Source: Hormiphora californensis
Taxonomy: Eukaryota > Animalia > Ctenophora
DNA length: 64,000 bases
Assembly: GCA_020137815.1 (NCBI GenBank)
Contig: CM035358.1
Span: forward strand, 1,302,001 to 1,366,000
Direction: 5' to 3'
Position numbers and translations under genes: made by a program. Shown here one piece after another: positions 10,101-13,100 of this stretch. Position 1 is the stretch's first letter. Each line of letters begins with the position of its first letter. The notes below the pieces were generated by a model that ran no database searches, had not been told where the DNA came from, and saw nothing but the letters and a program-made list of their open reading frames with translations.

Positions 10101-13100
10101 ACACGATTCCAGGATTTATTAGAAAACAACACAATATCTCACCTGTTTGAGATCTGCTTCTTCACATTTCTTTCCATTGACACTAGGAGCGGGACTGTCA
10201 CATTCCCTGACCCTACTCTTGGTTCCCATACCACAACCGTTACCAAGACAACTGCTCCATCCCGTCCATTGACCAAGACCACCGTTAACTGGCGTTATGG
10301 TAACCTGGGAAATGTGGTTTTTAGAGATCCGCAGGAAACAGATCGATTGAACTGGTCAGACGATCCATATTTTGAATAACGATGAGTTGGTTCCACCGTC
10401 CCTCAAGAAAAAGGGTACCCCTTCATCTCAAATAAGGGTTCATTTAACAAAATGATGTACCTGGTAAGTCTTTCTTGGAGTCTCTCCATCCCCATCCAAA
10501 CAAGTATAAGTACCAGATACGTATTGGGTAGCCTGGTCAGTTATCACCATATCATTACCCTCAAACTCGTACCTACATGATGTTGTATTTAGTGTTGTTG
10601 CCATGGTTACCAAAGTGATGTCATAGTTACCAAGGTCACATCATAGTTACCAAGGTGATGTCATGGTTACCAAGGTAACGTCATGGTTACCAACGTGACG
10701 TCATAGTTACCAACGTGACGTCATAGTTACCAAGGTGACGTCATGGTTACCAACGTGTTGTCATAGTTACCTGGCATTAGCACGTAGTATGACGTCATCA
10801 AGTTTCCATGTTGGGATATCACGTGACACACAATTCAGGGTGATCGTGTCTCCCTCCGATATACTGATGGGAATCTTCTCAATCAGGGCTCCTGGATCTG
10901 AAGGGAAGAAGTGTAATTTTAGGGGTGGTAGTTGCTAGTTTGTCCTCGATCTGGAGGGTAACAACATCTTTTTTTTGAACAAAACTCCACAACAATCTCT
11001 ATTATAATTTGGAGATGTCGCGTGATGGTCGTTCGTTCAGCGGTATCTAAGCGACAGACTGCTCCTTCATAAAACACTTGATGTGCCCAAAGCTGTAAAG
11101 CTGTCATTGACACTTTTGGAACTTCCAGTGGAAGTTTGTTCATATTTTCGAATGACTTTTGACATGCCAGTCCCCATAGTTACCAATTCAGTTGCCATGG
11201 CAACCGTGTTATTGACGTTGAAAGGGGCGAAAAGAACCACCCGGCGAAGCCGGGTGGGTTATCAAAAAGCCCTTACTTGAGGCGCACCCAATGGGTGCGC
11301 TAGTTTTAAATAGTTTCTGAAGTCATCCCAATTCCACGTACAAATTCCCAATAGTTCCCAACACCTACCGTTGACAACAAGAGCTGCATTTTCAATGTTA
11401 CTACCAGCAACATTGGTTGCCAGGCACACATACATTCCAGCATGTTCCATGGATGCAGCTGGTAGGACTAGTTTGGAAACAGTTGTGGTCTTGTCCAGAG
11501 TCTTGGTCGTGATAACTGGAGGGAGAATGGTTATTAGTAGGGACGAATCTCTCACAATTATAGCAATTTGTAGCAATTATAGCAGGTGATAAAGTAGAGA
11601 CAACTTGGGGAGAGAGAGTTCAATTGGCTCTAGTTAGTAGCTGTTCTTTGAGAGCTTATTGACCGCCCCCTACTTACCGGTATTATCAGTGTTCACCACC
11701 TCCAAACTATCTCTCATCCAGAGCACACTGGGTCTGGGCAGGGCATGGATCCTACACACGAACTCCACCTCCTCCCCCACATCCACCTCTTGGTCCAGCA
11801 TTCCAAACACAATGGGGTGCTCAGGGCAGTCGATCTCCTCGTTACAAGCCCTCATCTCGGTCTGAGGGGGACGTGTTAATTTGACGATATATGTCAAATG
11901 GCGCGGGTGTTGTAGGTATGAGAAATGAGATCATGGAAATAATATTATATTGCTTCTCAGTCTGGACGGGGGGGGGGGGGCTTTAGTTGTATTAACCTCA
12001 GAATCATCAAGTACTAATTGCTAATTAATTACCCATTACTAATTGCTAATTACCTCAGGATCATCGAGGCCACACTTGGTTCCATTGAACATTGGTACTG
12101 GGTTGGTGCAGGACCTGGATCTAGTCTGGGTTCCTCCATCACACACCTCACTACACTGGGTCCAGGAACTCCATCGAGACCATCCTCCATTTACTGAGGG
12201 AGGGGGGAGTTAGTGTGCAATGAGGTTTGGGAGAGGAGCGATCAGATAAATAATGAGGTTTGGGATGAGCTTAGGAATTGAGGAGTTTTTTTGGAGCGAT
12301 ACAAGTAGAGACAAGGGTAGTAAGTATACTTCAATATACTTGGACAACCTCACCACTACCTACCAGGACAGTTAGCCTCGAAGCAAGCATCAGTTTCCTT
12401 CACCTCATCCCCTCCAGTACAGTTCCTACCCCCATGGGCAGGTTTAGGGTTGGTACAGGTCTTGGTTCGGCTTCTCTGGCCCAGCCCGCATTCCTTATCA
12501 CACGGTGTCCAGTCCGTCCAGGATGTGTACTTACCATGTACTGGTAATAGGGGGTGTTAGTTGTGAGGGATGGGAGTAGGAGGAATTAGTAGTTTAGTTA
12601 TTTTCTTACTTTCAAACTTTTCAACACTACTTTAAACAAATTAATTTGAGTGTTCCGCTTGTAATCTCTTTGGCGATCCGTGTCAGTGCTAATTTTCTGG
12701 TTTTTAATATCTCTAAGTAGCGTAAATCTCTGTGGGCTTTTTTGAACGTTCTTGGAGTATTGGGAGTCAGTTTTAGTGCTGTCCAGGAGTGTGAACCGGT
12801 GTTTTAGGATGAACGATTTTGATGAAGTTACGAATAGAGAGGAGTTTGATAGTACTATGGCTAGAACTGTTTTTTCTGATAGGTCGGGGGGTCAGGGTTG
12901 TGTTGTCCTGAGGCGTCTGCTCGACGCGGGAAAGGCTCCGGAGGGGGTCACCAAAGACCAGCTCTGGATACTCCTGATGAAGACCCATTCTCTGCTACCT
13001 TCTGGAACAAGAACACGTTTCGACAGTTGCGGAAGCTCAGTAGCTGACATCTCTATCGGACATGCTGACTTACTGAAGGAAAGTTTTGAGAGTCTTAAAT

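Follow-up and report, generated by a model that had tools for sequence, protein, structure and literature searches.

Background

Every LINE insertion raises the fundamental question of how the element restores its 5' end, and the known answers are internal promoters and ribozymes. Some non-LTR elements, namely NeSL, CRE and SLACS, are tied to spliced-leader (SL) sequence; according to the available text of PMC4640811, they use a restriction-like endonuclease and insert into SL genes. In dinoflagellates, passages of PMC3229502 and PMC3942190 describe trans-spliced gene RNA that is copied to DNA and later spliced again, at an AG that lies within the earlier leader. In parasitic flatworms, 597 discarded loci carry partial leaders within 500 bp of LTR or LINE elements, and trans-spliced retrotransposon RNA was suggested there (PMC12582326, available portion). 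In Hydra, about 30% of the Iso-Seq reads from transposable elements (TEs) carry a leader, so TE RNA can use the trans-splicing machinery (PMC12220107, available portion). To the extent that these sources cover them, leader-tagged retrocopies are thus already known, from dinoflagellates and from a remark on flatworm LINEs.

The locus described here lies in a 64,000-nt stretch of Hormiphora californensis DNA (the window) and holds a LINE whose 5' end is the host leader. With the flatworm loci it shares a genomic leader beside a retroelement; however, the available text of PMC12582326 gives no junctions, families or cycle, whereas we find exact junctions, near-complete leaders and family-wide occurrence, and see no leader-less source. 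Our locus and dinoflagellate recycling have in common a retrocopy that starts with a leader encoded in the DNA. As far as the dinoflagellate passages extend, that process concerns host genes and leaves tandem truncated relics, whereas here the element itself, in an animal, carries a single leader without a relic, and replacement would therefore be needed at the leader's last base. The Hydra observations are at the RNA level, and genomic leader-headed families are not described in the text available from that report. The NeSL, CRE and SLACS elements resemble ours in being non-LTR elements tied to leader sequence, but the window LINE has neither their type of endonuclease, as described in the portion of PMC4640811 at hand, nor an SL-gene insertion site. 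Structurally it parallels Jockey-superfamily elements such as CR1, L2 and Jockey in its two ORFs, its apurinic-type endonuclease (APE) with a reverse transcriptase (RT), its short tandem-repeat tail and possibly a CCHC-type or L1-type ORF1; neither a leader head nor the ORF1-3' UTR duplex reported below is described for them in the available text of PMC4120745. Searches of open-access text found no report of leader-headed ctenophore LINEs, or of any LINE clade with a leader as its constant 5' end.

Results and discussion

A LINE that begins with the host spliced leader

An earlier note, made from the letters of the window, had recognized a 41-mer in front of a LINE as the ctenophore leader. 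Alignment agrees: positions 12610-12650 are the last 41 of the 44 nt of the H. californensis leader given in PMC8527503 (available text). They also equal the 3'-most 41 nt of the leader that is encoded by L019, an SL RNA gene that we found in metagenome data. The last 32 nt of the leader match once in the 64-kb window, with 0 matches expected from 100 shuffles. The leader sequence itself qualifies as a ctenophore spliced leader by its published identity, its presence on mRNAs and its position in an SL gene before a GT donor. The layout of the element and its surroundings is as follows.

12541..17484, minus strand: host intron (GT..CAG), flanked on either side by a TSP1 exon; predicted length about 101 nt if the insert is removed
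12585..12593, plus strand: left target-site duplication, 9 bp; may reach 12597 across a 1-nt indel
12594..12609, plus strand: spacer between duplication and leader, 16 nt; its A at 12608 may represent the first base of the leader
12610..12650, plus strand: spliced leader; corresponds to bases 3-43 when numbered on the 43-nt leader of SL gene L019
12651..12808, plus strand: ATG-free 5' UTR, 158 nt; first 10-16 nt common to sister subfamilies
12802..12807, plus strand: candidate acceptor-like TTTTAG, separated from the ORF1 ATG by one base; conserved in sequence and position in 6 of 8 clade members
12809..14098, plus strand: ORF1, 429 aa; three Cys/His knuckle-like motifs near the C end, read from sequence
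12915..12935, plus strand: predicted 5' arm of the duplex, 21 bp with the 3' UTR, one G-U
14032..16997, plus strand: ORF2, AP endonuclease and reverse transcriptase (Pfam PF03372, PF14529, PF00078); frameshifted
16998..17398, plus strand: 3' UTR, after the ORF2 stop
17017..17037, plus strand: predicted 3' arm of the duplex, 20 nt past the ORF2 stop
17399..17427, plus strand: (TTA)n tail; same tail type in L007 and L012
17428..17436, plus strand: right target-site duplication, 9-bp repeat

The order of parts that the note had given, with the leader followed by TG, an ATG-free UTR of 158 nt and an ORF1 start at 12809, was found on rereading at those positions. Its left target duplication 16 nt before the leader was also confirmed, and the 9-mer occurs only twice in the window, at 12585 and 17428. 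The combination of an ORF2 with APE and RT domains, an upstream ORF1, a 3' repeat tail and a target-site duplication identifies an APE-type two-ORF LINE. By its motifs, and among homologues that carry no clade names, it is perhaps L2-like (L2/CR1 lineage, Jockey superfamily). The best PDB sequence matches to this kind of ORF2, which is intact in the related locus L006, are to L1 ORF2p. In the window the ORF2 frameshift is a 28-nt loss behind 14679, and the 28 nt are present in contigs of sequencing runs X1 and X9 and in locus L028. The ORF1 has no Pfam match above the cut-off, and a zf-CCHC_6 match in L018 is weak and below the cut-off. Rfam has no match at gathering score in the window or in 10 element loci, and hence gives no listed self-cleaving 5' ribozyme of the kind that releases R2- and L1Tc-type LINEs.

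The leader ends exactly at the position of the SL donor, and the bases directly 3' of 12650 are TG rather than a GT donor. The window leader is therefore not an SL RNA gene: it has TG after the leader, and the sequence that follows does not match the L019 intron. The earlier reading of a processed junction holds, since neither SL-gene upstream DNA nor an SL intron is present. Because the template ran from the 5' end of the leader and was joined at the splice donor, we conclude that the leader very likely first came by trans-splicing.

The 16-nt spacer is unchanged in a flank contig of X1, and the window contains no second source for it. A resemblance between the spacer and the flank of L028 was not significant (shuffle p 0.18). 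On the host strand, the boundary between spacer and leader at 12609 reads as a GTAAG donor; together with the acceptor at 12541 it would delimit an intron-like stretch of 69 nt.

The element is antisense to a large Ig/TSP1 gene and sits in one of its short introns, which excludes the transcript of this gene as the element's sense RNA. About 900-49000 and 52183-64000 of the window are taken up, on the minus strand, by a very large Ig/TSP1 gene region and by a Ser/Thr-rich, mucin-like open frame of more than 3800 codons, built of repeats of about 978 bp. At about 20100-23100, within a long intron, a short repeat recurs several times in both orientations; it is likely a small DNA element.

The leader-body junction in sequencing-run contigs

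Contigs of 5 of 22 listed public runs were aligned to the element (X1, X5, X9, X16 and X22), of which X1, X5 and X9 are DNA. Contig depth is a rough guide and not a copy number, and contigs drop rare variants. In X1 (organism A), a 2572-nt contig starts at 12631, with 20 nt inside the leader, and runs unbroken into the body at a depth of 313.8, against 77.6-79 for the flank (about 4x). The X9 counterpart, from organism B (about 95% identical), is 1359 nt long; it likewise starts at 12631 and passes unbroken from leader to body, at a depth of 969.5 against 34.6 for the flank (about 28x). A 108-nt contig of X5 also joins leader and body; its depth of 585.5 is below that of the flank (949-1071). 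The leader and the first 6-10 body bases form nodes that branch to sister subfamilies, and the depths add up (837.5 versus 313.8 + 536.4, and 2000 versus 969.5 + 985.4).

In the complete loose-end table, none of the three DNA runs has a loose end before about 12651. The note had suggested looking for a leader-less master copy with a genomic AG acceptor; among the pieces listed for X1, X5 and X9, no leader-less entry to the body occurs at 12651 for this subfamily. It had also named, as a contrary outcome, an empty allele that already holds the leader. A contig of X9 spans the orthologous intron without the element and has 88 unaligned letters and no leader piece; because this intron is empty, we assign the leader to the element and not to the intron. 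The orthologous intron would measure about 122 nt, versus 101 nt predicted here without the insert, a difference compatible with either a host or an insert origin of the 16-nt spacer. No single contig among the run contigs bridges flank, leader and body at the window locus, and the join there is read from the window sequence. In X1, the flank contig aligns over 12300-12612 and ends in 28 letters without a placement.

In one old copy, present at a single locus, the leader is eroded and merges with the UTR (X1 record 6, X5 record 18). Such erosion is expected of a dead copy, and it is also compatible with plain inheritance of the leader. In the RNA runs aligned, no contig joins the leader to the window LINE: X22 contigs cover the leader and a bit of the 3' UTR without any element body, and the sole X16 contig begins at 12732, without a leader.

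Three further observations concern these contigs. In X9 (12631-16852), the 5'-end depth of 969.5 is about two thirds of the RT-end depth of 1435.7, which hints at many full-length copies. In X1 and X5, depth over 17006-17367 of the 3' UTR is far above that of the body, as short truncated copies or a tail-sharing SINE might produce. An X1 contig at 12623-12654 joins leader to leader through 11 other letters, possibly a fold-back or a tandem leader elsewhere.

Leader-headed loci in metagenomes

Metagenomes were scanned with a pattern made of the final 24 nt of the leader and two further positions, each G or T. This pattern is blind to leaders followed by GA, AA, CA or AT, and the proportions of the 28 distinct leader loci that it found are therefore biased: 17 are mRNA-like, one is an SL-5S array and 10 are LINE-derived heads. 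Leader scans of viral-contig and genome-contig collections gave 0 matches. The 17 mRNA-like loci begin inside the leader; host Pfam domains occur in 13 of them, and RT in none. The array, L019, is a tandem SL gene linked to 5S rRNA, with a 778-bp unit and 5S at 263-381 and 1041-1159. Its leader is 43 nt long, starts with AG and is followed by a GT donor. The base before this leader is C, versus G in the published 44-mer; that G may be derived from the cap.

Where sequence lies 5' of the leader, the locus is LINE-derived in 10 of 11 cases, each with a different flank. Seven of these heads belong to relatives of the window element, with ORF1 identities of 93, 62, 61, 58, 46, 45 and 30%. The junction is the same as in the window at four other metagenome loci, and three more relatives have variant junctions. 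Two leader-headed loci, L006 and L012, have both ORF1 and ORF2 intact. A check on whether independent insertions start at the same junction thus came out positive, as it recurs behind different 5' flanks and in two organisms. The proposed screen of other LINE types was positive too, with three leader-headed loci. L016 combines a different ORF1 with an APE ORF2. L026 contains an ORF1 alone and ends in an (AAT)n tail, and in the top 11 fold matches its structural model fits human L1 ORF1p; L014 is a distant relative of L026 (26% identity). Pfam and PDB sequence searches gave no identification for the ORF of L014 or L026. Both have many diverged homologues in public assemblies. In an RT tree of 46 of 120 listed homologues (rerooted, without support values or named reference elements), the five leader-headed members that have an RT are spread over all three main branches of a long-stemmed clade of 36 tips. 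The leader head is a family trait: its junction is fixed, and it is shared by many copies, by several families and by two organisms.

Integrity of the leader across copies

Compared with the SL gene, the leaders of 11 copies are 43, 42, 42, 42, 41, 41, 41, 40, 38, 35 and 28 nt long. None has an internal mismatch, and the only loss is of 0-15 nt at the 5' end; for the 10 fetched loci, 24 leader nt are fixed by the scan pattern, and the free test is the other 16-19 nt. Eight of the 11 copies keep 40-43 leader nt, and 1-15 nt of the 5' end are absent in 10 of 11. The first leader A of L012 could belong to its target. The 120 nt after the leader are 45-77% identical between families and 93-99% identical within two close pairs. 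That a few bases are lost per insertion, with no build-up over deep divergence, suggests renewal, and we consider it likely that the leader has been renewed repeatedly by some route.

The heads of all 11 elements lack SL-gene upstream DNA and the SL intron. A second, relict leader behind the first was found in none of the 11 (all p >= 0.4), and folding revealed no SL-RNA-like structure common to the heads.

Splice acceptors

The leader ends in GAG. Host acceptors, read from TSP1-anchored exons because a composition-based intron finder was too noisy, are YAG in 10 of 10 cases (9 CAG, 1 TAG), a small and purely cis-spliced sample. A pyrimidine-rich YAG stands 1-13 nt before the ORF1 ATG in seven of eight clade members, of which six share one motif and are not independent; the background of YAG before ATG is 60 of 383 internal ATGs and 2 of 17 mRNA loci. 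In L014, L016 and L026, a TTTYAG lies directly behind the leader. These pre-ATG and post-leader sites could be second acceptors for a translated form. Joining of the leader at the pre-ATG site was not found in the DNA or RNA contigs aligned.

Splicing at an upstream acceptor, or at the leader's own first AG, would produce leaders in tandem, and splicing farther downstream would give a shorter head. With neither outcome seen, only the terminal AG would keep the junction fixed.

A predicted duplex between ORF1 and the 3' UTR

Four elements hold both ends (the window element, L007, L012 and L006). In all four, early ORF1 contains a stretch, 235-290 nt past the junction, whose complement lies in the 3' UTR, 15-24 nt past the ORF2 stop. 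In this order, the helices cover 21, 24, 14 and 50 positions, and the own-pair scores are 54, 39, 33 and 69, versus 22-27 in 12 cross-family pairs. The observed scores were reached by 0, 0, 4 and 0 of 300 shuffles, and the duplex is the best-pairing stretch along the length of each element. For L007 and L012, own and foreign pairs were poorly told apart by the energy of the whole duplex but were distinguished by the score for ungapped helices. Since the duplex sequences are wholly different between families, it is the pairing that is kept and not the sequence. Our guess is that the duplex unites the ends for full-length copying. Open-access text yielded no literature on an ORF1-3' UTR duplex. 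We regard this conserved pairing as a new, separate and testable RNA feature.

Proposed cycle and alternative explanations

With somewhat better than even confidence, we interpret the window element as a full-length, frameshifted copy from a ctenophore LINE clade that is headed by the host leader, whose template was likely trans-spliced and whose leader is probably renewed in each round. Such a cycle would open with the transcription of a copy, initiated either in the host DNA upstream or close to the copy's own head. The spliceosome would then exchange the DNA-encoded leader for a fresh, capped one at the leader's terminal AG. Pairing of early ORF1 with the start of the 3' UTR would bring the ends together and may favor complete copying. 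Finally, ORF2 would prime on the nicked target through the (TTA)n tail and would usually stop 1-3 nt short of the cap. The earlier note had proposed that the LINE RNA was trans-spliced, reverse-transcribed at full length and inserted, and that each copy could carry its own acceptor. The presence of the host leader at the exact donor position, across families and organisms, supports the former part. Re-splicing at the terminal AG is less secure: its GAG departs from the YAG of all 10 host acceptors, a canonical-like pre-ATG site should compete with it and yet no join occurs there in the contigs, and no leader-LINE RNA contig was found. We give renewal by this particular route a slight preference.

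One alternative is a single ancient trans-splicing capture per lineage. The leader would since have been inherited as ordinary element sequence in an element transcribed by its own internal promoter, and selection would have preserved it, either for its effect on translation or because it acts as an initiator. The atypical GAG acceptor and the lack of RNA evidence for re-splicing among the contigs aligned fit that account, and conserved 5' UTR blocks could be promoter elements. However, the loss of 1-15 nt from the 5' end in 10 of 11 copies would add up over cycles, and full or near-full leaders that match today's SL gene without internal change occur in families with 30-60% ORF1 identity; we consider simple inheritance fairly unlikely. 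Renewal without a GAG acceptor could be achieved if the RT repaired the leader by a homology jump from a partial leader onto abundant SL RNA or a leader-capped mRNA, with no splicing of element RNA. Template jumping by non-LTR RTs is established, which counts in favor of this route. Repair would nevertheless need a separate way of starting transcription at the head, and no copy carries the SL-intron or mRNA sequence that a mis-registered jump would leave, and so we judge it unlikely.

Leader-headed copies might instead be dead ends, produced from hidden leader-less sources that have a normal outron and acceptor. Ordinary trans-spliced genes yield leader-tagged retrocopies in this manner, and contigs can drop rare paths; but X1, X5 and X9 show no leader-less branch at 12651 for this subfamily, and leader-headed L006 and L012 have intact ORF1 and ORF2. 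We judge such sources improbable. Insertion of a NeSL/CRE-like element into SL genes, with acquisition of the leader exon, has a precedent in elements of that kind (PMC4640811, available text). The earlier note had set the window LINE apart from them, correctly in our assessment: the endonuclease is APE and not restriction-like, the target is a host intron with a duplication, none of 11 copies has the SL intron downstream or SL-gene DNA upstream, and the SL-5S array L019 lacks an insert in the units seen. We regard this origin as very improbable. A one-off template switch or an assembly artefact at the window locus would be consistent with the lack of a contig bridging flank, leader and body there, but it is barely credible, and refuted at the level of the family, given the same junction in three DNA runs from two organisms and at four other metagenome loci, with variant junctions in three relatives.

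Implications

A broader proposal is that several unrelated types of ctenophore LINE are promoter-less clients of trans-splicing, that the leader renews itself at its terminal AG in every cycle, that the conserved duplex selects complete RNAs, and that many of the roughly 700 dispersed Hormiphora leaders are LINE heads. We advance it tentatively, at somewhat less than even confidence. PMC8527503 reports, in its available text, 718 genomic leader copies in Hormiphora and the leader on 56% of Iso-Seq reads. Our findings change how dispersed genomic leaders are to be read in ctenophore annotation, and the leader is usable as an exact marker of full-length insertions. Direct tests are offered by the cap type, by a marked leader and by swapping leaders between species. 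In this animal the leader head appears to be a lasting feature of entire families and not a matter of stray tagged copies, and trans-splicing would be a third answer, supplied by the host, to the regeneration of LINE 5' ends.
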